A stretch of DNA of 64,000 bases from positions 50,282,001 to 50,346,000 of the forward strand of contig NW_025964223.1 of NCBI RefSeq assembly GCF_023055435.1, written 5' to 3'. This document shows positions 32,250-57,634 of the stretch, piece after piece. A model generated the notes under the pieces. It ran no database searches. It saw nothing but the letters and a program-made list of their open reading frames with translations, and was not told the origin of the DNA. The translations under genes were made by a program, and so were the position numbers. This stretch comes from Haliotis rufescens (Eukaryota). How positions within the stretch are numbered: position 1 is the stretch's first letter; each line of letters starts with the position of its first letter.

Positions 32250-33020
32250 TTGTAAATAGTGCCATGTGTGATTCTGATACACTGTATATGTGTAAATAGT
32301 TCCCTGCGTGACGCTGATACATTATCTCTATATAAATAGTGCCATACGTGGTGCTGATACAGTGTATAAGTGTAAATAGTGCCCTACGTGATTCTGATAC
32401 ATTTTATATGTGTAAATAGTGCCCTGTGCGATACTGATAGTGTATATGTGTAAATAGTGCCCTCTGTGATGCTGATACATTGTATATGTGTAAATAGTGC
32501 CCTCTGTGATACTGATACATTGTACATGTGTAAAAGGTTGCCCTTTGTGATGCTGAAACAGTGTACATGTTTAAATAGTGCCCTGTGTGATGCTGATACA
32601 TTGCATATGTGTAATTAGTGCCCTGTGTAATGCTTATACATTTCATATGTGTAAATGGTGCCATGTGTGATTCTCATACACTGTATATGTGTAAATAGTG
32701 CCCTGCGTGTTCTGTTACATTATATCTATATAAATAGTGCCCTGTGTGGTGCTGATACAGTGTATACGTGTAAATAGTGCCCTGCGTGTTCTGTTACATT
32801 ATATCTATATAAATAGTGCCCTGTGTGGTGCTGATACAGTGTATACATGTAAATAGTGCCCTGCGTGTTCTGTTACATTATATCTATATAAATAGTGCCC
32901 TGTGTGGTGCGGATACAGTGTATACGGGTAAATAGTGCTCTGCGCGATTCTGATACATTGTATATGTGTAAATAGTGCTCTGTGCGATGCTGGTACATTG
33001 TAAATGTGTAATTAGTGCCA
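32250..33020. repeat. 40-bp minisatellite (TGTAAATAGTGCCCTGTGTGATGCTGATACATTGTATATG)
   Basis: Tandem repeats with period 40. Confidence 0.9.
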
Positions 33021-35680
33021 TTATACCGCATTCACGTCATTATTACATCCATTATACCTCATTCGTGACATAATTACATCCATTATACCTCATTCATGTC
33101 ATTATTACATCCATTATACCTCATTCATGTCATTATTACATCCATTATACCCTATTTACGTCATTATTACATCCATTATACCTCATTCATGTCATTATTA
33201 CATCCATTATACCTCATTCATGTCATTATTACATCCATTATACCCTATGTACGTCATTATTACATCCATTTTACCTCAATCATGTCATTTCTACATCAAT
33301 TATAGCTCATTCATGTCATTATTTCATTCACTATATCTCATTCGTGTCATTATTTCATCCATTATACCTCATTCGTGTCATTATCGCATCCATTATACCT
33401 CTTTCATGTCATTATTACATACTCTATACCTCATTCATGTCATTATTACATCAATGATATCTCATTTGCGTCATTATTACATCCATTATACCTCATTCAT
33501 GTCAATATTACATATATTATACCTCATTCATGTCATTATTACATCAATGATACCTCATTCACGGCATTTTTACATCCATTATACCCCATTCATGTCAATA
33601 TTACATATATTATACCTCATTCATGTCATTTCTACATCTATCATACCCCATTCATGTCATTGTTACATCCATTATACCTCATTTCTGTCATTATTACATC
33701 CATTATACCCCATTCATGTCATTATTACATCCATTTTACCTCATTCATATCATTATTACATCCATTATACCCTATTTACGTCATTATTACATCCATTATG
33801 CATCATTCATGTCATTATTACATCCATTATATCTCATTCGTGTCATTATTACATCCATTAAACCTCATTCACGTCATTATCATGTCCATTATACCTCATT
33901 TACGTCATTATTACATCCATTATACCTCATTCATGTCATTTCTACATACTTTATACCTCATTCATATCATTATTACATCCATTATATCTCATTCGTGTCA
34001 TTATTACATCCATTATACCTCATTCATGTCATTATTACATCCATTATACCTCATTCATGTCATTATTACATCCATTATACCTCATTCGTGACATAATTAC
34101 ATCCATTATACCTCATTCATGTCATTATTACATCCATTATACCCTATTTACGTCATTATTACATCCATTATACCTCATTCATGTCATTATTACATCCATT
34201 ATACCTCATTCATGTCATTATTACATCCATTATACCCTATGTACGTCATTATTACATCCATTTTACCTCATTCATGTCATTTCTACATCAATTGTAGCTC
34301 ATTCATGTCATTATTACATTCACTATATCTCATTCGTGTCATTATTACATCCATTATACCTCATTCATGTCATTATCGCATCCATTATACCTCTTTCATG
34401 TCATTATTACATGCTCTATACCTCATTCATGTCATTATTACATCAATGATATCTCATTTGCGTCATTATTACATCCACTATACCTCATTCATGTCAATAT
34501 TACATATATTATACCTCATTCATGTCATTATTACATCAATGATACCTCATTCACGTCATTATTACATCCATTATACCTCATTCATGTCAATATTACATAT
34601 ATTATACCTCATTCGTGTCATTTCTACATCTATCATACCCCATTCATGTCATTGTGCCATCTATTATACCTCATTCATGTCATTATTACATCCATTATAC
34701 CCCATTCATGTCATTATTACATCCATTTTACCTCATTCATATCATTATTACATCCATTATACCCTATTTACGTCATTATTACATCCACTTTGCCTCATTC
34801 ATGTCATTTCTACATCCATTATACCTCATTCATGTCATTATTACATCCATTATATCTCATTCGTGCCATTATTACATCCATTATACCTCATTCACGTCAT
34901 TATCATGTCCATTATACCTCATTTACGTCATTATTACATCCATTATACCTCATTCATGTCATTTCTACATACATTATACCTCATTCATATCATTATTACA
35001 TCCATTATATCTCATTCGTGTCATTATTACATCCATTATACCTCATTCATGTCATTATTACATCCATTAAACCTCATTCACGTCATTATTATGCCCATTA
35101 TACCTCATTTACGTCATTATTACATCCGTTATATCTCATTCGTGTCATTATTTCATCCATTATACCTCATTCATGTTATTATTACATCCACATTCTTGTC
35201 ATCATTACATCCATTATACCTCATTCATGTCATTATTACATCCATTATACCCCATGCATGTCATTATTACATCCATTATATCTCATTCATGTCATTATGA
35301 CATCCATTATACCTCATTCATGTCATTATTACATCAATTATACCTCATCCATGTCATTATTACATCCATTATATCTCATTCATGTCATTATTACATACCT
35401 TATACCTCATTCACGTCATTATTACATCCATTATACCTCATTCATGTCATTATTACATCCATTATACCTCATTCGTGTCATTATTACATACCTTATACCT
35501 CATTCACGTCATTATTACATCGATCCATTATACCTCATTCATGTCATTATTACATCCATTATACCTCATTCATGTCATCATTACATCCATTTTACCTCAT
35601 TCATGTCAATATTACATCCATTTAACCTCGTTCATGTCATCATTACATCCATTATACCTCATTTATGTCAATATTACATA
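33020..35680. repeat. 31-bp minisatellite (CATTATACCTCATTCATGTCATTATTACATC), about 85 units, with a 992-bp higher-order duplication
   Basis: Period 31; variant patterns recur at +992 (33127/34119, 33375/34367, 33623/34615). Confidence 0.95.
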
Positions 35681-36110
35681 AACAACGGTTCACGCAGTCG
35701 GATGCCACGCCATCAACCAGGTCACCGATCCTGACCACCCCATCCATTACAGTCGCCTCTTACGACAAGCATCGGTTGCTTGGGACCCATTCTCCAACCG
35801 GGATTATCGGCAGTGAGCGGCGGACAGTATTGATCAGAGGACTCAGTGAACGAGTCGTGGGCATGCACGTGGTTACAGTTTCTGATGACTATTTGCCCGA
35901 ATATCAGTGAATATATATCCCTTATAACTAAACAGACGAGGATTCGTTTAAATAACTGCCGACATGACGAGACTCCACGTGTTGGCTAGCATCACCCCAT
36001 TCCTAAACGGGTCGAGCAGTGACTAAAACTCCTTGGTCCGTTACCGGCATAAGGTCTATCTTGTGTATATTCAAAACATACTGAAAACGCTACGTTTTAC
36101 ATTTTTTTAC

Positions 36111-39534: not shown

Positions 39535-42500
39535 TTATCCATATAAAAGATGTTTTCTACGATTAAGAATTAAAAAGCAGACTTTGGCAAGTATAAAACA
39601 CACACTGGAGTCACTGAAAATAAAACAAAGTTTGTCGACATCAGGCATATCTAAAACATTATAAGATTTAGCAATACATTCATTAAAAAGAGTTGCCCTG
39701 ATATCATCATATAATGCGCAGTGAAACAAAACATGGACCTCGTCTTCTACGCTGTCATTACAGTGAAAACATCTTCTATTATTGACAGGTACACCTTCGT
39801 ATCGACCGGTTTCCACTCGAATAGGAGCCACACCACATCTAAACTTGGCTAGTGCCGATCTATAGTTTCTGGGCATCTTATTTGAAACATAGTATTCTGT
39901 CCCATATACTTGTTTGTAACATCGATACATTCTCAATTTATTAAGCCCATTTCGTCCCTCTTCCTTTCTTAACATATCGCTCCAACGGGTAACATATTCA
40001 TTTTTACACCATTGTTCCACATGTGTACAAACAGAAAATTTATCAATAAAACCTGTAGCGTTTAATATATGTCCTAAATCCATATTATTAAACTTCTTTC
40101 TTACCCTACCATTCCAATTTTAACAACCATTTACAGCGTATCTATCAGCCCAGTTAAACACATGTTTGTTTAACCTACTAGACATATTCTTAAGGCGACA
40201 CCATTGTCTTGCTACACTTTTCCACTGTCTGACAACAGGCGGTATCCATCCCATGTCCCCATTTATAGCGACGTTAGGGGCGTATTTGCCGAGTCCCAAA
40301 TAAAATCTAATGGCTCTATGGTGTACAGCATTTATTGCTGACACATCATAATTACCCCAGATAGCCGCCCCGTAGTCAAGAACAGACCACACCATACTAT
40401 CGTACAATTTGGAATAGGTTTGGAAATGCATACCGCCTATTGTCTTAACTTTGGATATCAACAGACCCAAAGCCCTATTAGCAGACTTCGCTGCTGCACG
40501 TGCCATTGCAGTAAAATCTAAGTGGTCTGTGAACAGTAGACCAAGATAATTATATTTAGCAGCAATGTCTAAAATCATATTTCCGACATTAAAAACATGC
40601 TTCGTCTGTATGACAGACGGATTTCTAAAATGGACAATTTTAGACTTTTCCTTATTGATCTCGATCTTATTTGTGCAACACCAAGTATGTAAAACATCTA
40701 ACAGTAGACTGAGATCAGCTTCATTCTCAGCTAGCAATGCTAAATCATCTGCATATGCTAATGCTGCAATATTAAAATTGTCTACAGTTACACCAATATT
40801 AAGACTGTTGAGAGTATATAATAAATCATTTATGAACAAGTTAAAAAGCAAGGGAGATAACAAACACCCCTGTTTTAAGCCACGGTTTACCGTGAACCAG
40901 GAAGTAAAGAAACCATTCACTCGAACACTGCATTTAACACCCTTGTATAATGATTGCAAGGCAGGCAACATTTTGCCTCCAATACCATGGTGAGAAAGTT
41001 TATCCCATAAAATGTTTCTATTAACACAGTCGTAAGCTTTCTTAAAATCTATGAATGCAACAAATGTAGATTTCTTTTTTACTTTTCTGTTTTCTATAAT
41101 TGCTGTTAGCGTTTGGACGTGATCGATAGTAGATCTTTTTTGTCTGAATCCGTTCTGTGAATCATGGAGTACGTCGTTAGCTTCTGCCCACAGTTGTAGT
41201 CTTCTGTTAAGGATACTACAATACAGTTTATAAATGGACGTAGTCAGGGTGATACCCCGGTATGAGAGGGGATCAGTAGGGTCCAGGGTTGAGCACTTTG
41301 GAATGGGACTAATTATGCCTTTCGACCATATTTGAGGAATCTTTCCTGTATTAAAACAATTATTAAAAATATAGTGGAGCGTTTTGGCGATAGCATCAGA
41401 CTTCAGCACCTCGGCGGGGATTTCGTCAATACCCGTTGCTTTTCCTGTATGAGCCTTATGGATAGCAGTCTTTACTTCAAATAGACTTATGCTGTCGTTG
41501 AAAAGAACATGGTCATTGGCGCTCTCACCGTCTCTCCTAGAAACTAACTTCGTGTCACTGTCTCCATTTAGCAAACCGCTAAAGACATTTTTCCACCTTT
41601 CCAACATTATGTCCTTGCCCACACCCACATTCCCATCCTCCATAACTACTGCCATCGGTATTGTCTTGTGCCTCTCCGACCCTACACCTACACGTCCTAT
41701 CTGTCTCCAGAACTCACTATCACGAGCCGTACATAATTCATCTAGACTGTTCACGGTCTCTTTCACATATGCACGTTTAGCCTGTTGTACACTTTGATCA
41801 AACTTCTTACGTAAAGTCACAAAGCAGTGTTTCAGAAATTGTTTATCTGATTTAGTCCTGCATTTACACCATTTCTTTTCGGCTTCACACATCTCGTTCC
41901 AAAAAGTCGTCAGTGAATCGGACCACCATGGCTTCTTGCTCCTCCGTCGTTTATTAGAAGTCTTGGAGTTCAGCATATAGGACCTACTTTTCAGCTTACA
42001 TCTCATTTCTTCTTTAACCAAGCTAATCAAACTGTCTGAGGCTGCGTCGATATCACATTGTGTCACATGTGAGTTCTCCAAGCGCTGGATAATGTCATCT
42101 AAAGTCGTCAAACATTCCGGTGATGACATAAAGTCACGTGGTATATCTGACGTACTGTATTTAGTCACTCTGACACCTTTATCACGAATGTCCACATCCT
42201 CATGAATATGTTCAATATCATATGTCCATCGCAACAACGAGTGGTCTAACTTGGTGATTAGATGTCCGTCTACCTTACCGACAATATCTGCATTACACGC
42301 TAATACATCTGATCTAATAACCTCAAAATTCTGAAAATTAGGAAGATATTCATATGGCACAATACAGTAGTCAACCACTGACTGACCTCTAGATGATACA
42401 TATGTAAAATCATTCAAAACAGCGTTTCTCCCATTGAGAATACAACAATTAGAGTCAATCAAAAATTCTACAAAGCGCCGCCCGTATGCATTGCATGTGA

Positions 42501-43047
42501 AATCCACCACATTTCTGTCTTGGATATTGTCTATTCCTTCAATAAAATCAGTCTGATCGCCGCATCTACTATTCAAATCTCCACAAATATATAACAGTTT
42601 TCCAATTGTTTGATACTCAAGTATTTGCGATAGCAAAGTGTCCAAAAAGTCAGCGACACATATATTTCTGGTGGAATGTTCAGGGGGTAGGTAGCACACA
42701 CATATGAAAAATTTAGTATCACAATAATGCTTATCACACAGTTGCAACCATAAAATCCCCTCATGGTTGTTGTCTACAACGGTTATATTATACATATTAT
42801 ACAAAGACTGTCTAATAAAAAAAAAAACACCCCCCGAGCCGTGCTTCGCACGTACGTGTAGGGCAGTACGGTTATGGCCGTACCACACGTAGTTATCTAG
42901 ACACAGTTTCTTGTCTGCACACAAGTGCGTTTCTGCCACGCCCACAATATCAAGGTCACAACATAGTATTGATTCACTGCGTATTACATGATTGTCACTC
43001 TCACCGTCACAAGACCATCCCGCCACATTCCAAAATCCGCATCGGAC
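39535..43047 (-). pseudogene. LINE ORF2p (APE endonuclease + reverse transcriptase + Cys/His C-terminal domain) with one in-frame TAA at 40120-40122
   Basis: FWNV, VAETH, GDLNSR, VVDY, LDH (APE); YRGITL, QNGFR, FIDFKKAYD, GLKQGCLLSP, LAYADD (RT). The ORFs 40120-43026 and 39535-40083 are in the same frame. Confidence 0.9.
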
Positions 43048-44106
43048 CTATCTCCTCCCTCCTCTTCTATGTTGTCCATAGCCTGATGTACCCCGAGTGT
43101 TTCTCTCTTCGTCTCGTCTGTCACTTCCACGCCGGTTCCCCTTGACTGACTCCCATGCTCCGTCCTCTGCACGTGCTCTGTTATCATCGCATTTGTCAAT
43201 TTCAGACTGGGGCCATGTATTTCGGTGTCGATTGCTGTCAAGAGTGTCTCGATTAGATCGGTTCACTTGCAGGCGGGCACCTCTTACTCTCACCTTGTCA
43301 TTTCCAATCGCGATGGCGATCGTTTTCAGGTTGGCTTCATGTAGTCTTTGTTGACGAGTCTGGTCATTCATAATAAAAATGTCTTTAAAATTTCTGGAGT
43401 GTTGTAGCTTTGATTTGGATTGCAGGATCAGTGACTTGTCCTCCATTGAGCGACATGTGGCTACAATAACACCGGGGTAGCGTGACTCCCCCCTGTTCGA
43501 CTTTCTCTCAGCATGTACTATGTCCACATCTTTTAATCTCATACCATCTTTGAGAACACTATTTACCTTATTTTTCACATTCTCACCTTCAGACTCTATA
43601 ACATTCCGGAAGATAAGGTTCAGTTTGATGAGATCTTCTTCTTTTTTGCCAACAGCTGATTTCATGTCGTTCAGCTGTTTGTTTACATTGTCGATTTCCG
43701 TGGACTGTTTGCTGTCGATCTTGCTGATCCGATCGTTTATTTGTTTAATTTCACATTTCATATCTTCTCTGACCTCCTGCAGCTTTATGTTTACTGTTTC
43801 CTCCATTCTCTTGATCATATGTTTCTCGAATGTGTCCATTTTCTTGGTCAGAGTGGCAGTGAGAGAATGCATTGCGTTCACTAAGTCTGTCATACTTTTA
43901 TCTTCTGAATGTTTTTTATCAGAGTCATTTCTCACCTCATGATCACTCTTTACTTTCTTATGTTCACTGTCCTGATCATCTGCCGAGAGCGTTCTCTTTC
44001 TTCTGGGACTTGTGTCTTTCACTCTCTCACAACTCGAGGTCGCCATTACCGCCGACACAAAACTTTGTGACAGGCCCAAGTCCATCGCGGCCTCTGTTTC
44101 GGTCAT
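43048..44106 (-). CDS. LINE ORF1p (coiled coil + RRM-like nucleic-acid-binding region), 352 aa
   Basis: Intact ORF with a heptad-rich segment, NLIFRNVIESEGE motif, IFIMNDQT and a basic RG-rich tail. Confidence 0.85.
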   Translation of the reverse strand: MTETEAAMDLGLSQSFVSAVMATSSCERVKDTSPRRKRTLSADDQDSEHKKVKSDHEVRNDSDKKHSEDKSMTDLVNAMHSLTATLTKKMDTFEKHMIKRMEETVNIKLQEVREDMKCEIKQINDRISKIDSKQSTEIDNVNKQLNDMKSAVGKKEEDLIKLNLIFRNVIESEGENVKNKVNSVLKDGMRLKDVDIVHAERKSNRGESRYPGVIVATCRSMEDKSLILQSKSKLQHSRNFKDIFIMNDQTRQQRLHEANLKTIAIAIGNDKVRVRGARLQVNRSNRDTLDSNRHRNTWPQSEIDKCDDNRARAEDGAWESVKGNRRGSDRRDEERNTRGTSGYGQHRRGGRR

Positions 44107-46018: not shown

Positions 46019-46219
46019 CTCTTGTGGAGTCTTATTTAAGTATCATGAAGTAGAAAGGACGAGATGATTCTTTTGAGTGATTATAGTTTATATCATTTAT
46101 GTAGATAACAATTGGGGTCGTGCGCTTACGTATGCACCTATGCTTTTAGGATCAATAATGTGTTTACATATTCTTTCATAACAATTTCTCCTATAAGTGT
46201 TATAATCACACCTGCATAT

Positions 46220-47987
46220 TGTAGCGGCCCGGACCCGAACTTCTGATAAACCTCGAAGTCTGGATGTAACTGAGAGTCAAAACACTTCTTTTCAATGAAT
46301 AATTAGTTTTTATTCATGTGGGTATAACAATGCCTTATATGGACAACACAATGCTTCCAAATAAGTAGATCCCTCTGAGCTTTAAGGTTTATTTGTAAGG
46401 ACCAGTGTCAGGGCAAAATAATTATTGCCTGTAACTATAATGGTAGTTTACTGCTATAAATATATATATATGGATGACTTCTTTATCTGAATAACTTTAC
46501 AGTTACTCAGATAGCAATTTGTGTCTGTGTTCAAAAATGCAGTCTATTTATAGAAATGATTAAATAAGGACAAGGGGAACTTTTGGGCTGAATTATCTGC
46601 CCTTTGATTGAAACTGACCTTTAGACTGCCAAAGTCAGAATGACCCAGAATGGATCTCATCGTATTTATAGGTGTGAGAAAATGGTCACATGTCTGTTAT
46701 TGACCAATCAAATAACGAGAAATTACGTCTCTTTACGTCCTTATTCTTTTGAGGGATCTACTTTCACAATGTAAAATCACTGAAATAAAGAGGAAGGCAA
46801 ACCATCTCAGGAGGTAATTTGGTATAAAAATGAGTATTTATACCAATCAATGAATTCTGTCTAATTGATTCACTAATTGCCTTCCAATATCACAAGATAA
46901 ACAATTACGTCCTGCTACATCGAAGCTACGTCATTGCTGCCTGCCGAGAGGACGTAATAACAACAAGCAACATCGACTGGGAATTACGATGGACAATTCA
47001 AAGAGGAAGATTACAAATATCAGGAGGCAATTGGAATTTATCTGATGCATAAGACGTTTAATAACACAAATTGGCCACTGGTATGCTTTGACAGAAGCAC
47101 TGGATGTCATATTTATGAGAAACATGTTCATAAATAGTGACGCTAAATACTGCGCATGAATACATCAGCGAAGATTACATAGTTCCTGATGTCAGAATTA
47201 ACAGTAACTTTAATACACGTCTTGACATATCAACAAATACGATTCTGGGTTCCTCTGGACATAGTTCATTAGATTAAATAAACTTTATAATGCAAATGCT
47301 AAGCATTAGCCAAATTCAATAACTTCATCGCGACCTAGGCTAGCTGTCACAAAGTTAAAATGGCGGGCGTCGGCGAAACACGTAGCTCAGCCCAGATCAC
47401 AAATTCACACAAATATGGATAAATATCAAGCTGCCAAGTGATTGTGATCTGTTTGTTGAAGAACAAAGGTATGATTAATCTGTATCTGATTGTTAAATTG
47501 CGTAACAGTGTGCTTAGAACGATGAATTCTTCAAAAGTTACGGTCAATGCAAAACTCTTGAAACAAGTAAACAACATCGTTTTGACAGGCACGTTGTTGA
47601 CATCGATGCTTATGAGGTACTGGCACATCCTAAACAATATGCGTAACATGATGGCATGGACATATGATTATTTTTACGAGATAACAGTGTGCCATGAAGC
47701 TCTATAAAAGCATGCTATGATCCTCCGATAGATTTCTTACCAAAACGGGATTCAAAACATTGAATTACGTGAAAACGAGGTTGGCAAAAAATATACTGAT
47801 ATATACCTGCAAAACTAATTACAGTTCTCAGGATAATTATGATATAATTCGTGCACTGTCATACAACCATCAAAAATACAACAGGGAAATATTTAGGAAA
47901 TATTTCTAATTTTTACAAGCTGTCATAACTCTCATATTTTATAATAAAGACATTAATATTTATATATTCTTCGTGATGGCCATCACA
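46220..47987 (-). repeat. 3' LTR (1768 bp)
   Basis: About 99.5% identical to 55090-56856 (about 8 substitutions and 1 indel seen by eye). Confidence 0.97.
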
Positions 47988-48002
47988 TCATCCCCCTCTT
48001 CA
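47988..48002 (-). other. Polypurine tract
   Basis: TGAAGAGGGGGATGA on the minus strand, abutting the 3' LTR. Confidence 0.9.
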
Positions 48003-48023
48003 AAGATCAGGTCCCCTGATCTG

Positions 48024-49520
48024 CTAATCCGCTTCAAGGCGAAGACCGATCCTTGCTGCATCGATAGAGTTGATGATCCTGTCTGTTTCCGTATTCCTAT
48101 GGCGTTGGGCGGCTTGATGCATGAGGATTATGGCCCTGGCAGTCTGGCCGTTTATCTTGCCCAAGGAGATGTCAACCAAGGTCCGGTAATCGTAAAGACG
48201 GGCCTTCCTTGATGGTGAGTGGTCCTCTGTATGCAGTAGGGTACCAGGGAGGGCAAGCATATTCCATCTGTCATGCAAGTAGCTCCTTTCAATCCGAGGG
48301 ACTCTTCCTTGGAGGCCCTCCTCCAGGGTCATGGCAGCAAATTCCCACTGGAGGAGTCTCTCATCTGCACTGAGGGTCTCCCAGCTCCTAGGAGGCCAGG
48401 TGATGCTCCTTGCACCAGCAGAGAGGCGGATCTGATGGTGTGTCCAGTCCCTTCTGGCTGGGGGAAGCAGTGGCATGCAACCTGTTGTCAAGATCTTCTT
48501 GGCATCCCTCATGGTGTCCACTTCCCTTGGCCTTGGGGGAGAGCTGGGCCTTTGATGGTATCTTTTCTGTTCCTCTCTTCTTGGGATCTTTGATGCGGAA
48601 TCCTTATGGGGAGACATGCTGGACTTACTCGATCTTTTCTTGGGCCTGGGGGAAGGTTCCCTTGATGAAAAAGGGGATGTCCAGTGTGTAACGGAGTAGA
48701 TCATGTTCTTCTCTATCCCCAGAAGTGATGCGAAGGTGGCTTTCCTTGTTTCCAGTTGAGGTCCCTCCATTTTCTGTCCCGATCCACTTGGCCTGGAGTT
48801 GGGTTCGGCCCTGCCAAGAGTCCTCATCCGCCTTGTGAGGTTGTCGAATGACTTTGGACTCTGCATGGCTTCTTCCGAAATGCCCGCCTCATACACAAAC
48901 ACACCCCCAGGCGTATAGAACAGGACAGTAGCACCATTCCTCTGGAGGAGGATGTCCTTAATCTCTAGTTGCGTAGAGGCGCCACACTTGCTTTCTGAAG
49001 GGTCGTATTCTGGTGGTGTGTTAACTTCCGGTTCAAGACTTATGATTCCATCTGTAAATATGGACAGAGCATCATCTTCTACCTCCTGCACCTCCACTGG
49101 TAGGGTCTTTGTAACCGTTTTAATCGTCTGCCATCCCTCCTCCCATTCTTCCTCTGTTTTTGGCATGCTGCCCTGTGTCGATACCCAAAGAAGGACCATT
49201 TCCCTTGTCTTTGCTGAAAGTGCTGCATTCCAACCTGGAGCTGGTACCGCCCTCACATACGATTCTGGATTAAGTGAAAACCATGTGGTGTTACTTTCTG
49301 ACGTAAAGTCTGCATCAAGTTCCTGCAGCTGTAGCTTGTGCTTCGCATCACAGTGCCTCTTCCACTCTGAAACTCTTGCAAAGGACTGGAATGAAGGACA
49401 CAGGATACAGGCTACCTTGAGTTTACGGTGTGGTGCTGCTGCCAAATGATTTTTCAATTCTTTCTTCGTTGCAAAAGAATTTTCACATGCTCCGAGTCCA
49501 CAGACATACTTGTGAGCCAT
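48024..49520 (-). CDS. Retrotransposon ORF3: 498-aa protein with two N-terminal C2H2-type zinc fingers and uncharacterised domains
   Basis: Uninterrupted ORF between pol and the PPT; CGLGAC..HLAAAPH and CILC..HCDAKH; splice-acceptor-like tttgtgttacag 20 nt before the ATG. Confidence 0.85.
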   Translation of the reverse strand: MAHKYVCGLGACENSFATKKELKNHLAAAPHRKLKVACILCPSFQSFARVSEWKRHCDAKHKLQLQELDADFTSESNTTWFSLNPESYVRAVPAPGWNAALSAKTREMVLLWVSTQGSMPKTEEEWEEGWQTIKTVTKTLPVEVQEVEDDALSIFTDGIISLEPEVNTPPEYDPSESKCGASTQLEIKDILLQRNGATVLFYTPGGVFVYEAGISEEAMQSPKSFDNLTRRMRTLGRAEPNSRPSGSGQKMEGPQLETRKATFASLLGIEKNMIYSVTHWTSPFSSREPSPRPKKRSSKSSMSPHKDSASKIPRREEQKRYHQRPSSPPRPREVDTMRDAKKILTTGCMPLLPPARRDWTHHQIRLSAGARSITWPPRSWETLSADERLLQWEFAAMTLEEGLQGRVPRIERSYLHDRWNMLALPGTLLHTEDHSPSRKARLYDYRTLVDISLGKINGQTARAIILMHQAAQRHRNTETDRIINSIDAARIGLRLEAD

Positions 49521-50189
49521 CTTCAACGATTATGTGTATTCTGTAACACAAATGTTTTCTTTTGGACTCGCCTAAACATCCAACAATGCAGCATATTATT
49601 CCAACTTAAATGCCATCATGTGTAATTGTACTATTGATTATGTCTTAAGGTCAATACTCTACAACCCTGACACTGGTTTGCATGGATCTCTGATAAATAT
49701 CTTAGCCTCACAGGACAATCATAGCTTCTATCTTTACACGGGTCACCTCCATCAGTTCTGTGTACTCCGTTCTCACACGATGCCCAGATCAAATGCCACA
49801 GAAAGAATGTAAACAACATCAAGTCAGCAGGTTCCAGGGTGATCAGGCCTAGTCTTACTGCATTACATGACGGATCCATCATCGTTTGCTGCAGCACTTC
49901 CATCAACATGTTCTTTCTGTTTGCAGATATCTGGCGCTGTATGACACAAGTTGAGGTTCCACCCAACAAAGCTTCAAGTCCTAGTACAGCTCCCTAAGAT
50001 TTACCAGAGCAACCCATGCAAGCAATGGCTTCAGCACTGAAGCTCAAGATCCTTCTTCGGGACATAGATTATCCCATCCAACTATTTACATCGTAATAAA
50101 ACTCCAACATTGTTAACAATAAACACAAACTTCTGAAGTTCAACTTTTCTTTAAGATATTGTTAAGACAGGTTCTCAAGGCCTAATCTT

Positions 50190-53100
50190 CTAGTTCCTTG
50201 AAGTTGACTGCTGACATCTTTTGATCCATGAGGGAAGGTTCTTCCCTCTGTAGAGTAGCAGCCGATCCACATGAAACACCTTAGAAGGTTGCTTAAGGGA
50301 CCTTCTCACAAGGTAGGTGACATCATCTATCCTTTTCTCAATGAGATAGGGTCCTTTCCAACTTGAAGTGAGCTTCTGACAGACCCCACGTTTCTGTACA
50401 GGGTTGTGGAGCCATGCAGCTTGTCCCTCTTTAAGACATCTTCCCTTGGTCTTGAGATCATAATTCTTCTTCCGATATTCTGCTGTCTTTTTCAGGGATC
50501 TCCTGCCAGCTTCGTGAGCTCGTTTCAGCCTATCTTCCAACGTTAAGAGATATGTTTCAACATCAGCCTGATCCCGAAGCTCTTCTGGCCTCCCAATGAC
50601 TGCTTGCATGGGCAGAACTATCTCCTTTCCGAAGACCATTTTGTTGGGTGTGCGCCCAGTACTGGAATGCATTGAAGCTCTGTAGGCCATCATTACTTGA
50701 GGCAAGTACTCGTCCCAACGCTTCTGATCCTTCTCACAATACATTGTGAGCTTCTGTGCAAGGGTTTTGTTGAACCTTTCCACAGCTCCATTTGATTGTG
50801 GCCTGTAGCTAGTTGTCCTGGTCTTGTGGATCTGTAAGAAGTCGCAGATGTCTTTGAAAAGCTTTGACTCGAACGTAGAGCCTTGGTCAGTGTGTATCTG
50901 CATAGGCATGCCAAACCTACTGATGAACACATCCACAAAAGCTTTAGCGACTGTGACAGCTTCCTGGTTTGGGATAGCAACAGCTTCAGTCCACTTAGTG
51001 AAACAATCACTTATAACAAGGATGAAGCGATGTCCTGACTTTGTCAGCGGGAGAGGTCCTAAGATGTCCATAGCAACTCGCTCCATAGGCTCTCCAACTG
51101 TGTATTCCCCTAGAGGGGCCTTAAGGGGTCCCTTGGGTTGTTTCTTTGCTGTGCAATGGTCACAGGTTTGACAGTAATTCTCCACCTCACCCTTGAGACC
51201 TGGCCAGTAGAAAGAGAACTTGACTTTCTCCAGAGTCTTCTCTCTGCCCAAGTGTGCAATGGATGGAATGTCATGATAGTACTTCAAAACGTCATCTTTC
51301 AGGCTCTGAGGAACAATCATCTGCTGTCGGGATTCATCATCTTCCATCCATAAGCGATAAAGCACTCCTGAGTAAACATTCAGCTGATCCCAGTGTCTCC
51401 AGAGAGTCTTGATAGTGGATGACATATGAGAGATTTCCTTCCACTCTGGCTTTTTTCCTTCTTCTTTGGCAGCAAGCAAAATCCCCACGTTTGCATCAGC
51501 CAACTGCTTCTGCCTGATTTCTGGGAGTGTCCAGCCTTCAAGAGAAACCAATGGCTCACTGGGTTGGTTCATATGGCTCCTAGTAACTGCTCGGTTGAAT
51601 TCTGTGAAGATATCTGCTTGTGGGCTGCTGCCCTCTGAGACCATCTGATTTCCCTCTTCATCTGACGAGTCTCCCAGCTCCTGCTCTACTTCCTGTCTGA
51701 GACATGCTTTACAAGGGTTTCGTGACAGAGCGTCAGCATTTAGATGTTTTCTGCCCTGCCTATGGATGACCATGAGGTTGTAAGTTCCGAGTTCTTCAAG
51801 CCACCTGGCAACCTGTCCTGTTGGCTTCTTCAGGTTGCGCATCCAGCTGACAGCTGCATTATCTGTTCTGAGTAAAACCTCCTGTCCATATAAGTAGGAA
51901 TGAAAGTGCTTAAGAGCATTCACCACAGCAAGAAGTTCCTTACGAGTGACACAATACTTTCTTTCATGACAGTTCAGGGACTTGCTCATGTAAGCAATGA
52001 CCCTCTCTGCACCATCTTGCTCCTGAGAAAGTACAGCTCCTGTTGCTTTGTCACTTGCATCCGTGTCCAAAATAAATTTGGTTCCAGGTATAGGGTACGA
52101 CAAAATTGGTGCTGAAGTCAGTGCTTCCTAGAGGTGTTGGAAAGCATTGGAGCACTCTTCTGTCCAGGAAAATGTCACCCTCTTTTCTACCAGCTGGTAT
52201 AACGGCTTGGCTGTTTCGGCAAACTTCTCTACAAACTTCCTGTAATAGGAACATAATCCAAGGAAACTCCTCATCTGCTTGGCTGTTTTTGGCACTGGCC
52301 AGTTCTGCACAGCAGATGTCTTTTCTGGATCTGTTTCAATGCCTTTCTCGGACACAATGTGACCTAGAAACCTCACTCGTTTCTGGAAGAAGATGCACTT
52401 TGATGGTTTCAGCTTCAGACCAGCCCCTAGTAGTCTTTCAAAGACATGTTCCAACCTTTGCAAAGCTTGTGGCACTTCTATTGCTCCAACTATAATGTCG
52501 TCTATGAAAAGTAGACATTCCTCCCATTGCAGTCCCCGGAGCACTTCTTCCATTAGTCTTTCAAAAGTTGATGGTGCATTCGCGAGACCGAATGGCATCA
52601 CTGTAAAGTGATAGAGTCCGAGTCCAGTCGTGAATGCTGTTTTCTCCTTGTCTTCGTCCACCAAACCTATCTGCCAGAACCCTGAGTTTAAGTCCATTGT
52701 GCTGAACCATTTTGAATTCGCCAAGGCATCAAGGCAATCATCAGTTCTTGGTAGAGGGTAAGCATCCTTTAATGTGACATCATTCAGACGGCGATAATCT
52801 GCGCAAAAGCGCATAGATCCATCTTTCTTTCGTACTAGGACCACAGGGGATGCCCAGGCACTGGTTGAAGGTTCAATTACTCCCCTTTTAAGCATCTTCT
52901 GGATCTCTTCTTTTTCAATTTCCCTTTTTCCGAAAGGTTGCCGTCTTGGAGGTTGTCTAATTGGACAGGCTGTTCCAGTGTTAATGCGATGTTCCACCTT
53001 TGAAGTTCTGCCAAGGTCGGCCGATGAAGTTGCAAAGACTTGTTGGTATCTTGCAAGAAGAACTGCAAAATCTTCACTCTCATCCATAGAGAGATGCTGG

Positions 53101-53969
53101 GAGCTTCTTTGCCAAAGGTCCTTGAGGTGGTCAGGAAGAGGTGTACATTGTAAGCTTGAAATATCAGCATTGACGTTGCAATGGACTGAGGCACATCTGT
53201 CTTGTTCTTCCAGCTGCATGTACAGTGACTCTGCTACTCCCACAACCATGTTACAGTGGAGTGTGACTTCATCAGGACTGAAGTTAAAGACATTGATTTT
53301 CTGGACCTCTTCAGATGTATCTACTACGCACTCTGGTACATGGACTCCAGGTGGAAGATCCCTTTTCCCTGCTATAATACCAGCTGGAGCAAGTTTATTT
53401 GCCCTGGGTATCTTCATCGTTATCCAGGCTCCTGAATGAGGTGGAATAACTGTGGTCTCACTCACTTCAACACGACAACTCATTTCAGCTTCGGATGAAA
53501 TCCAACAACTTAAGGAAGAATCCCCTGAATTGAGCTTTAGACGTTTGTAGTCGATGGCACTCACATGCTTCAAGAGGAAATCTTGACCCAGGATTGCCTC
53601 CGGAATTACATCACACACAAAGATAGGATGTGTGTATTTTTGTCCATCAAGAATAATGTCCATGTCAGCATGCCCTTCAAACTTTAAACCTATTCCATCC
53701 ACTCCTGCGACTTTAATGGTCCCTTGCTGGAGAAAAGGAGCATCTTCCAACTTGATCTGGTCAAATATCCTCTTTGATAATATTGTCATGGTTGACCCAC
53801 TGTCAACAAGGACGTTTGCTTCTACACCATATATGACACCCTGAATGTAGAATCCATTATCCAAACCCCCCTTAGAGGTCCCAGTTAGTCCAACTCGGAT
53901 AGCAGCATCTTCAGGCCTTGAATTCCCTGTCTCCCCATGGCCTACTGAGTCGACAGGATGGCTTTTCCC
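50190..53969 (-). pseudogene. pol: Gypsy pol (protease, RT, RNase H, integrase) interrupted by one in-frame TAG at 52128-52130
   Basis: LVDSGS, FIDD, LDTDAS, HHCC, D-D-E, GPY motif; reads HL*EALTSAPILSYP across the stop. Confidence 0.93.
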
Positions 53970-55006
53970 TGCGTCCCTGCAGATCCAGCATGAAAGGTGG
54001 ACATCTGTTCCTGGCACCTTTTGTATATCGGGCAGTCTTTCATAAAATGTTCCCTTGATTTGCAGATGAAACAAGTTCTCTGACTTTGAGGTCGGTCATT
54101 TCTCTTCTCATATCTGAAGTTGTTGCCCTTTTCAAGCTTCTCTAACCTTCCCATGATCTTGTGCAGCACTTCACCCTGAAGATCTTCATTCGGCTTGGGT
54201 GCGCTCTCAAGTTCCAAGGGAGCAAGCCCTCCTTCGTTTCTGTTCCCTACTGCCCTGACTTGTCTCTTCTTATCTCGATGGTCACCAACCAATGCCTCGA
54301 ACCTTTCAATCACCTCCACCGCTCCTGAAAGAGTCCTGCATCCTCTGTCAATGCAATGAAATTTAAGCTCTGGTGAGACTGTCTTGTATAGCTGATTAAG
54401 GGCAATAGCTTCCTGTGCCCTGCTGTCTAAGTCAATGTATGCCCTTTGGGTCATCTGTCTTAGGTCATCGGCCAAAGCAGCAACTGACTCCGCATTCTGT
54501 CTTTGTCTGACTTCTAGCCTTGAAAGCCATAAGCTCTGTTGTCTCTCACTCCCAAATCGGTGGTTCAGGTTCCTAACTAGCATGTGCAGTGACATCTTCT
54601 CGTGTGGGGCCAGTCCCATGTAGAATGTCCTAGCAACCCCCTTCAGGCTGGCAGCAAGAACTAAGAGTTGCTGGTCCATAGGCCAGTCACCGAGTTCTGC
54701 ACAATTCTTGAAGTGTGACAGGTACTCCTCCCAGTCTGTTGTCCCATCATAGAAATCTGGCCTGATTGTGAAGGGTACTCTTCTTCTAGGTATGACCATT
54801 GGTCTCCTAGGTGTTGCATCATCTCTATGGTGTACTCTGACCTCGCCATTGGATCTGCTTGGCTCTTCATCAAGTGATTCAGCCTCTTCATACAGTTCAT
54901 CAAGTGTCTCCTCTTCAAAAGATATGTCCCCTTGTCCTTCTTCTGCTGTGGTTTGATGACACTTGTCAAAAGAAACTTCTGCGTCTGGAGATGAAACTGT
55001 AGCCAT
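53942..55006 (-). CDS. gag: Gypsy gag with CCHC zinc knuckle
   Basis: YDGTTDWEEYLSHF capsid-like motif, Q..ES...A..L region, CFICKSREHFMKDC. Confidence 0.92.
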   Translation of the reverse strand: MATVSSPDAEVSFDKCHQTTAEEGQGDISFEEETLDELYEEAESLDEEPSRSNGEVRVHHRDDATPRRPMVIPRRRVPFTIRPDFYDGTTDWEEYLSHFKNCAELGDWPMDQQLLVLAASLKGVARTFYMGLAPHEKMSLHMLVRNLNHRFGSERQQSLWLSRLEVRQRQNAESVAALADDLRQMTQRAYIDLDSRAQEAIALNQLYKTVSPELKFHCIDRGCRTLSGAVEVIERFEALVGDHRDKKRQVRAVGNRNEGGLAPLELESAPKPNEDLQGEVLHKIMGRLEKLEKGNNFRYEKRNDRPQSQRTCFICKSREHFMKDCPIYKRCQEQMSTFHAGSAGTQGKAILSTQ

Positions 55007-55068
55007 CTTGTCACTGGTCCTAACTGTAAGTCCCTTGGTTCGTATCAAGGATGTTTAAAAATATAAAC

Positions 55069-55086
55069 ATCCCACTTCTGACACCA
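55069..55086 (-). other. Primer binding site complementary to the tRNA-Leu 3' end
   Basis: TGGTGTCAGAAGTGGGAT, 3 nt inside the 5' LTR boundary. Confidence 0.9.
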
Positions 55087-55089
55087 GTT

Positions 55090-56856
55090 TGTAGCGGCCC
55101 GGACCCGAACTTCTGATAAACCTCGAAGTCTGGATGTAACTGAGAGTCAAAACACTTCTTTTCAATGAATAATTAGTTTTTATTCATGTGGGTATAACAA
55201 TGCCTTATATGGACAACACAATGCTTCCAAATAAGTAGATCCCTCTGAGCTTTAAGGTTTATTTGTAAGGACCAGTGTCAGGGCAAAATAATTATTGCCT
55301 GTAACTATAATGGTAGTTTACTGCTATAAATATATATATATGGATGACTTCTTTATCTGAATAACTTTACAGTTACTCAGATAGCAATTTGTGTCTGTGT
55401 TCAAAAATGCAGTCTATTTATAGAAATGATTACATAAGGACAAGGGGAACTTTTGGGCTGAATGATCTGCCCTTTGATTGAAACTGACCTTTAGACTGCC
55501 AAAGTCAGAATGACCCAGAATGGATCTCATCGTATTTATAGGTGTGAGAAAATGGTCACATGTCTGTTATTGACCAATCAAATAACGAGAAATTACGTCT
55601 CTTTACGTCCTTATTCTTTTGAGGGATCTACTTTCACAATGTAAAATCACTGAAATAAAGAGGAAGGCAAACCATCTCAGGAGGTAATTTGGTATAAAAA
55701 TGAGTATTTATACCAATCAATGAATTCTGTCTAATTGATTCACTAATTGCCTTCCAATATCACAAGATAAACAATTACGTCCTGCTACATCAAAGCTACG
55801 TCATTGCTGCCTGCCGAGAGGACGTAATAACAACAAGCAACATCGACTGGGAATTACGATGGACAATTCAAAGAGGAAGATTACAAATGTCAGGAGGCAA
55901 TTGGAATTTATCTGATGCATAAGACGTTTAATAACACAAATTGGCCACTGGTATGCTTTGACAGAAGCACTGGATGTCATATTTATGAGAAACATGTTCA
56001 TAAATAGTGACGCTAAATACTGCGCATGAATACATCAGCGAAGATTACATAGTTCCTGATGTCAGAATTAACAGTAACTTTAATACACGTCTTGACATAT
56101 CATCAAATACGATTCTGGGTTCCTCTGGACATAGTTCATTAGATTAAATAAACTTTATAATGCAAATGCTAAGCATTAGCCAAATTCAATAACTTCATCG
56201 CGACCTAGGCTAGCTGTCACAAAGTTAACATGGCGGGCGTCGGCGAAACACGTAGCTCAGCCCTGATCACAAATTCACACAAATATGGATAAATATCAAG
56301 CTGCCAAGTGATTGTGATCTGTTTGTTGAAGAACAAAGGTATGATTAATCTGTATCTGATTGTTAAATTGCGTAACAGTGTGCTTAGAACGATGAATTCT
56401 TCAAAAGTTACGGTCAATGCAAAACTCTTGAAACAAGTAAACAACATCGTTTTGACAGGCACGTTGTTGACATCGATGCTTATGAGGTACTGGCACATCC
56501 TAAACAATATGCGTAACATGATGGCATGGACATATGATTATTTTTACGAGATAACAGTGTGCCATGAAGCTCTATAAAAGCATGCTATGATCCTCCGATA
56601 GATTTCTTACCAAAACGGGATTCAAAACATTGAATTACGTGAAAACGAGGTTGGCAAAAAAATACTGATATATACCTGCAAAACTAATTACAGTTCTCAG
56701 GATAATTATGATATAATTCGTGCACTGTCATACAACCATCAAAAATACAACAGGGAAATATTTAGGAAATATTTCTAATTTTTACAAGCTGTCATAACTC
56801 TCACATTTTATAATAAAGACATTAATATTTATATATTCTTCGTGATGGCCATCACA
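55090..56856 (-). repeat. 5' LTR (1767 bp)
   Basis: Direct repeat of 46220-47987. Confidence 0.97.
55508..55580 (-). promoter_or_regulatory. LTR core promoter (CCAAT, TATAAATA, Inr TCATTC); same motifs at 46638-46710
   Basis: TATAAATA at 55540-55533, Inr A+1 at 55511 (29 nt spacing), CCAAT at about 55575, AATAAA downstream at about 55260 and 55180. Confidence 0.7.
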
Positions 56857-57634
56857 ATATCACTTGGATTATTGTAAATTCTTGTAAATATATTTAACAT
56901 GTCCCTCTTTCTGCCTGCGCTGTTGAGATGACAATACCTCCATCCATATATCTGTGGATTGTTTGAGGTCTCTGCTGGACCGTGCAGTCAGGATTTACAC
57001 CCTGAAACAACGACTTTCCATGCAATGTAATATCATTACTGTCTTTTTGTCATGTGTCATCCTTGACTTGTGTATTTGTGTAGTTAGTACACTTGCCCAT
57101 CCCTTTCCATGAGACAAAAGTAGTATGTCACGTTGGTCATTTAACACACACCAGAAACATGTTCATAGTTTTTTTTTGTAGAAGAAATGTATCAGTAATA
57201 GGTTCATGTGGTGATATGCGAAGGGTGTCACCCAACGAAGGATATTACAAATGTTTAAGTCAGTTGGCAGAGTCTTGTCAAGTGTTTCAGATAGATAGTC
57301 AGTTTCTTGACTGCTGTTGTATTTGCTGGCCGACCGTGTGGGGAAGGATCGCCTCTTTGTCTTCATTACAGAGAGCAGCGTATACAAGTAGTCTAACACA
57401 TCAGAAATGTTTTCTGAAAGTGAATCACTTGAAAGGTTTCCTGATAACAGTGTATGCCACAGCCTCTCGCGGCAAGGGAGTTAACTGACTATAAAAGTCC
57501 AGTTCCCACCCATACCGAACAAGGCTGGAATTTGGGAGTAATAGTTTTGCTGGACTAACGAGTAAACGCGTAGTCCAATCAAAATCGAGATCGAGATCCT
57601 GTTCGTAATCAAAACAATCTTATTAAAATCAGAT

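Follow-up and report, generated by a model that had tools for sequence, protein, structure and literature searches.

The usual description of an animal LTR retrotransposon is a gag-pol element with or without an env gene, and few regulatory proteins have been characterized from such elements. The Ty3/Gypsy element Cer1 of C. elegans encodes CERV, reported to be a 517-aa nuclear protein that is made from a spliced mRNA and needed for export of the genomic RNA (gRNA); it has a candidate NLS, a possible zinc finger and three structured domains connected by flexible linkers (PMC10309623). LTR elements of bdelloid rotifers are reported to carry non-env third open reading frames for GDSL esterases, DEDDy exonucleases or small TM proteins (PMC5408684). 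As non-env third ORFs are already on record from the bdelloid elements and Cer1, their kind is not new. Plant Ty3/gypsy elements have extra ORFs as well, which are lineage-specific and mostly of unknown function.

Here we describe ORF3, carried by a Gypsy element of Haliotis rufescens, which belongs to a real, widespread and apparently undescribed accessory protein family, with two domains that fall into no known family. A survey of mollusc Gypsy elements classified clades, among them MolGy1-16, Cigr-1 and the C-clade, by RT/RNase H, and the terms "ORF", "envelope" and "zinc" are absent from its main text as available (PMC6238403). No such gene appears in the available parts of PMC12440569, PMC8220671, PMC13524379, PMC2774666 and PMC8905726. 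We found no description of the ORF3 family, or of TatD in Gypsy or other LTR elements, in the literature searched, Repbase, GyDB and subscription papers lying outside that search; the elements may well have Repbase entries, perhaps with the ORF noted.

The host element and the build of ORF3

The window, by which we mean the whole stretch of 64,000 nucleotides that was analysed, contains a complete Gypsy element at 46220-56856 on the minus strand, and this element carries ORF3. It has TG...CA LTRs and a TSD, gag followed by PR-RT-RH-IN, a primer-binding site and a polypurine tract, as expected for Ty3/Gypsy. The element is young and full-length: its LTRs, each about 1.77 kb long, share 99.49% identity, and the 4-bp TSD ATAT bounds it on both sides (46216-46219 and 56857-56860).

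55090..56856 (-): 5' LTR (TG...CA), from its termini and self-blastn (1769 nt, 99.49% identity to the 3' LTR)
55069..55086 (-): primer-binding site, first bases TGG, 3 nt past the LTR
53942..55006 (-): gag, 354 aa, with a CCHC knuckle
50190..53948 (-): pol (PR-RT-RH-IN), with one premature stop at 52128-52130
49521..50189 (-): spacer, 669 nt, 40% GC, between the IN stop (50190) and the ORF3 ATG
48024..49520 (-): ORF3, 498 aa, same sense as gag and pol
47988..48001 (-): polypurine tract
46220..47987 (-): 3' LTR (TG...CA), from self-blastn and its termini

The primer-binding site is one that we take to match tRNA-Leu. A slippery-type site, G-GGA-AAA, lies near 53969 with pol downstream in the -1 frame, and gag-pol frameshifting may well occur there. 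Pfam matches to RT, RNase H and integrase follow the Gypsy order, the integrase has no Pfam chromodomain match, and the protease was identified through motif and similarity rather than by a Pfam match on the window copy. The premature pol stop is private to this copy, being absent from all 8 other copies examined. The TSDs of the window copy and of 6 of 7 others fall within the narrow set ATAT, ATAA and TTAT. A short perfect inverted repeat with 8-bp arms (48004-48022) lies between the ORF3 stop and the polypurine tract. Elsewhere in the window we noted a non-LTR retrotransposon (39535-44106, minus strand) with a 352-aa ORF1 and an RT-bearing ORF2 in pieces, and at about 32900-35700 a 31-bp tandem satellite array of some 90 units with strong GC skew.

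A sequence-only reading of the locus had proposed an uninterrupted sense ORF of 498 aa that fills the space between integrase and the polypurine tract and ends about 20 nt before the latter. The frame is indeed free of stops from 49520 to 48024 on the minus strand and ends 22 nt from the tract (48001-47988), but it does not fill the interval, since the 669-nt spacer separates it from the IN stop. This spacer is AT-rich and has stops in all three frames. Within it, 9 of 9 copies keep open a frame of 92 codons (49909-49631, minus strand) that starts with ATG and would encode a hydrophobic stretch and a number of Cys residues; the copies are only about 1% divergent there and other families have no counterpart, so the frame may be due to chance. 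The protein itself divides as follows.

49104..49520 (-): N-domain, aa 1-139, two C2H2 fingers and a Trp-rich helical extension
48966..49103 (-): acidic disordered linker, aa 140-185, containing PPEY
48678..48965 (-): middle alpha/beta domain, aa 186-281, of low sequence conservation, with conserved R230/R231
48516..48677 (-): basic Ser/Pro-rich disordered linker, aa 282-335, with the NLS-like PRPKKR
48027..48515 (-): C-terminal domain, aa 336-498

The two C2H2-type fingers were correctly read, and all eight zinc ligands are present: C7-X4-C12-X12-H25-X5-H31 in finger 1 and C38-X2-C41-X14-H56-X4-H61 in finger 2, each ligand being kept in 93-99% of the rows of a 120-protein alignment. Pfam support within ORF3 is confined to these fingers, with zf-C2H2 below cut-off for ORF3 (E 0.007) and matched at E<=0.01 by 16 of 97 family members; neither the middle nor the C-terminal domain has a Pfam match in ORF3 or those 97 members. 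The most conserved parts of the protein are the C-terminal domain and the fingers. In finger 2, Arg stands at position -1 in 66 of 94 sequences and Asp or Glu at +3 in 91 of 97 (family alignment); positions -1 and +3 of the C2H2 recognition helix contact bases. The C-terminal domain, which the sequence-only reading had put at about 160 aa and did not recognise, conserves Trp, Pro and Arg; since it has no conserved His and no acidic residue above 0.88, a binding domain fits it better than an enzyme.

The basic Ser/Pro linker with its NLS-like motif lies where it had been placed, and a basic cluster is found in 56 of 78 long homologues; this second linker is highly variable in length across the family and reaches several hundred residues in some homologues. 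The acidic linker does contain PPEY in the window copy, but PPxY occurs in none of the 78 long homologues, and a late-domain reading of the motif was rejected on that count. The earlier view that ORF3 lacks a TM helix and is no Env also holds: its best 19-aa hydropathy window scores 1.02 (two of the 78 long homologues reach 1.8), and in Pfam searches neither ORF3 nor any of the 97 family members resembles Baculo_F, which both env controls match at E<1e-17.

An AlphaFold model built with 120 sequences (mean pLDDT 86) has three rigid blocks, aa 1-139, 186-281 and 336-498, connected by disordered linkers; the folded middle domain was missing from the sequence-only description and was added by the model. 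The whole-model pTM is 0.44, leaving the relative placement of the three blocks open. The finger pair, its ligands set in beta-beta-alpha units, reaches a pLDDT of about 95, and the C-terminal domain folded alone has a pLDDT of 95.7 and a pTM of 0.89. Foldseek returned no match at E<=0.001 for the whole model against PDB and BFVD, or for the C-terminal domain against PDB, and the best VIA-align Z among 48,161 chains was 2.9 for the C-terminal domain and 4.3 for the whole model. The modelled finger pair aligns weakly with the DNA-binding tandem fingers of CTCF, REF6, ZBTB7A and Fzf1 (Z 3.5-3.7 over 57-64 residues). A PDB sequence search with ORF3 gave nothing below E 0.01 and only weak zinc-finger rows, and the ESM Atlas gave generic C2H2 leads (at most 0.86), none of them for the C-terminal domain. 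The predicted middle and C-terminal domains, the former judged within the whole model, are thus without a Pfam or clear PDB match, which does not prove them to be new folds.

Selection on ORF3 and its linkage to pol

The genome holds 8 further near-identical copies of the element (97-98% identity). ORF3 follows integrase in all 8, and both LTRs are visible within the fetched stretch in 7. Comparing the window ORF3 with each copy gives dN/dS of 0.15-0.34, equal to or below pol and well below the value of about 1 that the sequence-only reading had named as telling against its proposal; the eight ratios are not independent because the copies are related. Among variants common to at least two copies, which predate insertion, 18 are synonymous and 7 are replacements, where neutrality would predict a synonymous share of 0.23 (p=2e-7). 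ORF3 is under purifying selection. Its dS, 0.04-0.07, is higher than that of pol, 0.014-0.027, for which we have no explanation in hand. The spacer diverges by about 1% between copies and ORF3 synonymous sites by 4-7%, a gap that could reflect either constraint on the spacer or recombination around ORF3.

A second family in the genome (family B) has the gene in the same slot, with pol 53-64% identical and ORF3 about 30%; the LTRs of its best copy are 99.8% identical, and 3 decayed copies examined also keep the ORF3 slot. Fifteen of the 18 loci examined, the window included, have pol or gag-pol upstream or are tandem fragments of the element, while C57 and C90:7.28 Mb are isolated decayed pieces. 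At L045-L047 (G000:C568:1.414-1.452 Mb), a tandem-repeat region contains at least six repeats of a piece of the C-terminal domain, about 200 nt long and some 80% identical.

The homologues, which follow pol in related elements, show that ORF3 is not a host gene captured only in the window copy. Signs of a nested element were likewise absent, ORF3 lying at the same place in all 8 copies, although this was judged from position and not from TIRs. Position, selection and pol-linked homologues together bear out the proposal of a dedicated accessory gene, distinct from env, in a Gypsy lineage, and that ORF3 is a functional accessory gene at all we regard as close to certain.

Homologues and other occupants of the env slot

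Word-seeded protein searches found only 2 relatives, whereas a four-sequence HMMER profile matched 656, 350 and 134 clusters at E<=1e-3, 1e-10 and 1e-30, respectively; the best 150 of the 656 were inspected. Matches to the N-terminal, middle and C-terminal domains occur in 50 of 78 long homologues, with one further homologue having a repeated layout. Two metagenome contigs, drawn from 191 pattern matches, both have gag, pol, spacer and ORF3 with long open frames and about 30% ORF3 identity. When 20 clusters were looked up, three were named from bivalves (Mytilus or Mercenaria), 16 were unnamed and one came from a bacterial bin, which is likely host contamination; Sinanodonta supplied two more homologues. 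No relative was found among 73 IMG/VR candidates. The homologues in Sinanodonta, Mytilus and Mercenaria are annotated as "C2H2-type domain-containing" host proteins, and protease or integrase pieces precede ORF3 in 3 of 187 homologous protein records. The family runs to hundreds of clusters, filed as host "C2H2 domain-containing" genes, and transposon cargo is therefore likely to be among the zinc-finger genes counted in some bivalves.

Within the genome, 30 of 130 integrase hits were hand-picked, their surroundings fetched and an integrase tree built. In this tree 24 of the 30 group with four type-I elements (100/100, with a midpoint root and a long-branch warning), and the remaining six have env or no ORF3, so that the env-bearing elements fall outside the zinc-finger-ORF3 clade. 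A zinc-finger-type sense ORF3, whole or broken, was seen by eye in 22 of the 24 clade elements, being deleted in one and unclear in another. Type I forms one clade at 78/81 in the integrase tree and at 94/98 in an RT tree that has three type-I rows and leaves out six elements, family B among them. The type of ORF3 follows the pol clades, with 8 changes as against a shuffled mean of 22, a figure inflated by near-copies.

Type II ORF3s (13 rows) have two fingers along with an FxDPG-like motif, and some of them probably contain a coiled coil. Type III ORF3s (9 rows) combine a stretch rich in Arg and Ser with a single finger, a helical domain and a TatD domain, the last above the Pfam cut-off in 3 of 4 pieces scanned (E 1e-31 to 1e-43). 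Types I and II match through the finger pair alone (hhalign probability 84%, 53 columns) and types I and III show no hhalign match; with no detectable homology past the fingers, the ORF3 types are not one family beyond them. The env slot of this clade holds interchangeable zinc-finger cargo.

Several of these loci deserve mention in their own right. The small two-finger proteins of type II come from two separate pol clades (L116:1253-2146, plus strand; L129, L133, L139, L143, L145, L147 and L169). TatD-like type III ORF3s occur in at least four Gypsy families (L126:1071-3284, plus strand; L131:4792-6258 and L173:4692-6791, minus strand), with further type III loci at L166, L167, L137, L142 and L136. 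Three young Gypsy elements with LTRs more than 99.8% identical, L157:4027-6465 (minus strand), L160:1458-3842 and L162:1446-3824 (both plus strand), have a baculovirus-F-like env frame of about 800 aa.

Expression and possible roles of ORF3

Two features near the ORF3 start bear on its expression.

49542-49541 (-): candidate splice-acceptor AG, 20 nt before the ORF3 ATG
49520..49550 (+): largest antisense pile of ~30-nt reads, 153 reads, run X22

In each of the four type-I elements a YAG stands no more than 20 nt upstream of the ORF3 ATG. Under a fixed strict pyrimidine rule, which the window family and L176 fail, 6 of 14 non-env families have an acceptor-like site no further than 25 nt from the first in-frame ATG, as against a 13% background (p=0.007). 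These sites suggest that ORF3, like env, is likely expressed from a spliced subgenomic mRNA. No splice joint was seen in the 5 guessed-RNA contig runs, which cover ORF3 but give no measure of its expression level, and contigs in 3 of the 5 read through the candidate acceptor; one X18 contig ends at 49542, at a depth of about 6, where a coverage gap explains the end equally well. A block shared by the spacers of the four type-I elements was not found among the matches listed.

Appreciable small-RNA reads came from one of two runs, X21 giving 7. In X22 (organism B, related species label), 578 reads fall across the element, nearly all antisense and about 30 nt long by adapter position, and the three largest piles begin with T. 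Antisense reads of about 30 nt with a 5' T are a piRNA signature, and the X22 antisense reads on this element family are piRNA-like. The 153-read pile begins on the first base of the ORF3 start codon and may be copies of few molecules.

As to what ORF3 does, we tentatively favour a nuclear DNA-binding regulator that sustains transcription of the element under host silencing. The Arg (-1) and Asp/Glu (+3) of finger 2, the basic NLS-like linker and the flexibly tethered, non-catalytic-looking C-terminal domain suggest a nuclear reader-plus-adaptor build. In this proposal ORF3, inherited with pol and probably translated from a spliced subgenomic RNA, would enter the nucleus and attach through its finger pair to DNA of the element itself, presumably the LTR. 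A host factor would be recruited or blocked through the C-terminal domain, such that silencing is countered and the element stays transcribed despite its targeting by piRNAs. Against this, C2H2 pairs bind RNA or protein too and two fingers make a short reader, the conserved Arg and Asp could be structural contacts with the helical extension, piRNAs on a transposon are uninformative on the role of ORF3, and the splicing step lacks an observed joint, with the window acceptor failing the strict rule.

The main rival, absent from the possibilities listed in the sequence-only reading, is an export factor like CERV or Rev, in which ORF3 from spliced RNA binds unspliced genomic RNA in the nucleus and drives its export. 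We consider it rather improbable, yet a serious contender: CERV is reported to be similar in size, nuclear, of three domains and needed for gRNA export (PMC10309623), the excess of acceptor-like sites in non-env families would suit such a factor, and the sister type III ORF3s are Arg/Ser-rich. However, no ORF3 domain has a match to a GTPase-like G domain or a ring-forming M domain among the top rows listed, the CERV finger is C4 rather than C2H2, no RNA-binding fold was matched, and here too no splice joint was seen.

Alternatively, ORF3 might be a general host-manipulating effector that does not bind the element, either a decoy for a zinc-finger repressor or an inhibitor of the piRNA pathway or innate sensing. 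A rigid, conserved, non-catalytic C-terminal domain on a long flexible tether suits protein binding, and the TatD nuclease of the sister ORF3s could conceivably clear nucleic-acid signals; this explanation nonetheless leaves the conserved finger-2 residues unaccounted for and its partner is hypothetical, and we think it unlikely. A cofactor for integration or nuclear entry, which would anchor the integrase complex at particular chromatin or at AT-rich sites, seems to us a little less likely again. The narrow set of TSDs and the lack of a chromodomain match in integrase would agree with it, but target preference is usually set by integrase itself, ORF3 stands as a gene of its own that shows no sign of being fused to pol, and ORF3 types are freely swapped among sister lineages. 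That ORF3 is a recently captured host gene, or a passenger without a role for the element, is very improbable and largely refuted: homologues in Sinanodonta, Mytilus and Mercenaria do carry ordinary host annotations, but those records are multi-copy, dispersed and often fragmentary, 15 of 18 loci are pol-linked or tandem fragments with two isolated decayed pieces, and ORF3 is under selection and tracks the pol tree.

Returning to the nuclear regulator, a wider conjecture, possible but on the doubtful side, is that in a large Gypsy clade of aquatic invertebrates the env slot is a swappable nuclear-effector cassette directed against the piRNA pathway, and that the C-terminal domain is a new fold. 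The cassette would hold a C2H2 reader with a new-fold domain, as in the ORF3 family, or a coiled coil, or a TatD nuclease. The ORF3 family and its sister types are in any case candidates for retrotransposon-encoded activators, export factors or piRNA antagonists.

Among known systems, the errantivirus-type env of L157, L160 and L162 occupies the same slot and strand as ORF3 after a similar spacer, with an acceptor-like site before the ATG in L157, but it has a signal peptide, TM helices and a Baculo_F match, all three of which ORF3 lacks. The extra ORFs of plant Ty3/gypsy elements belong to different hosts and encode proteins that are not known to be related; they often lie antisense or upstream of gag. 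In the bdelloid elements the env slot likewise serves for varied non-env cargo, with a nuclease (DEDDy) in some lineages, although these ORF3s have known folds and the available part of the paper names no zinc-finger or TatD ORF3 (PMC5408684). CERV resembles ORF3 in size, at about 500 aa, and in being an additional non-env protein whose three predicted domains are joined by flexible linkers; both also have a candidate NLS and a zinc-binding motif, and each has two domains without close PDB matches. Unlike ORF3, a free-standing ORF with a pair of C2H2 fingers, CERV has exons in common with gag, a loop of the C4 type and a GTPase-like domain.
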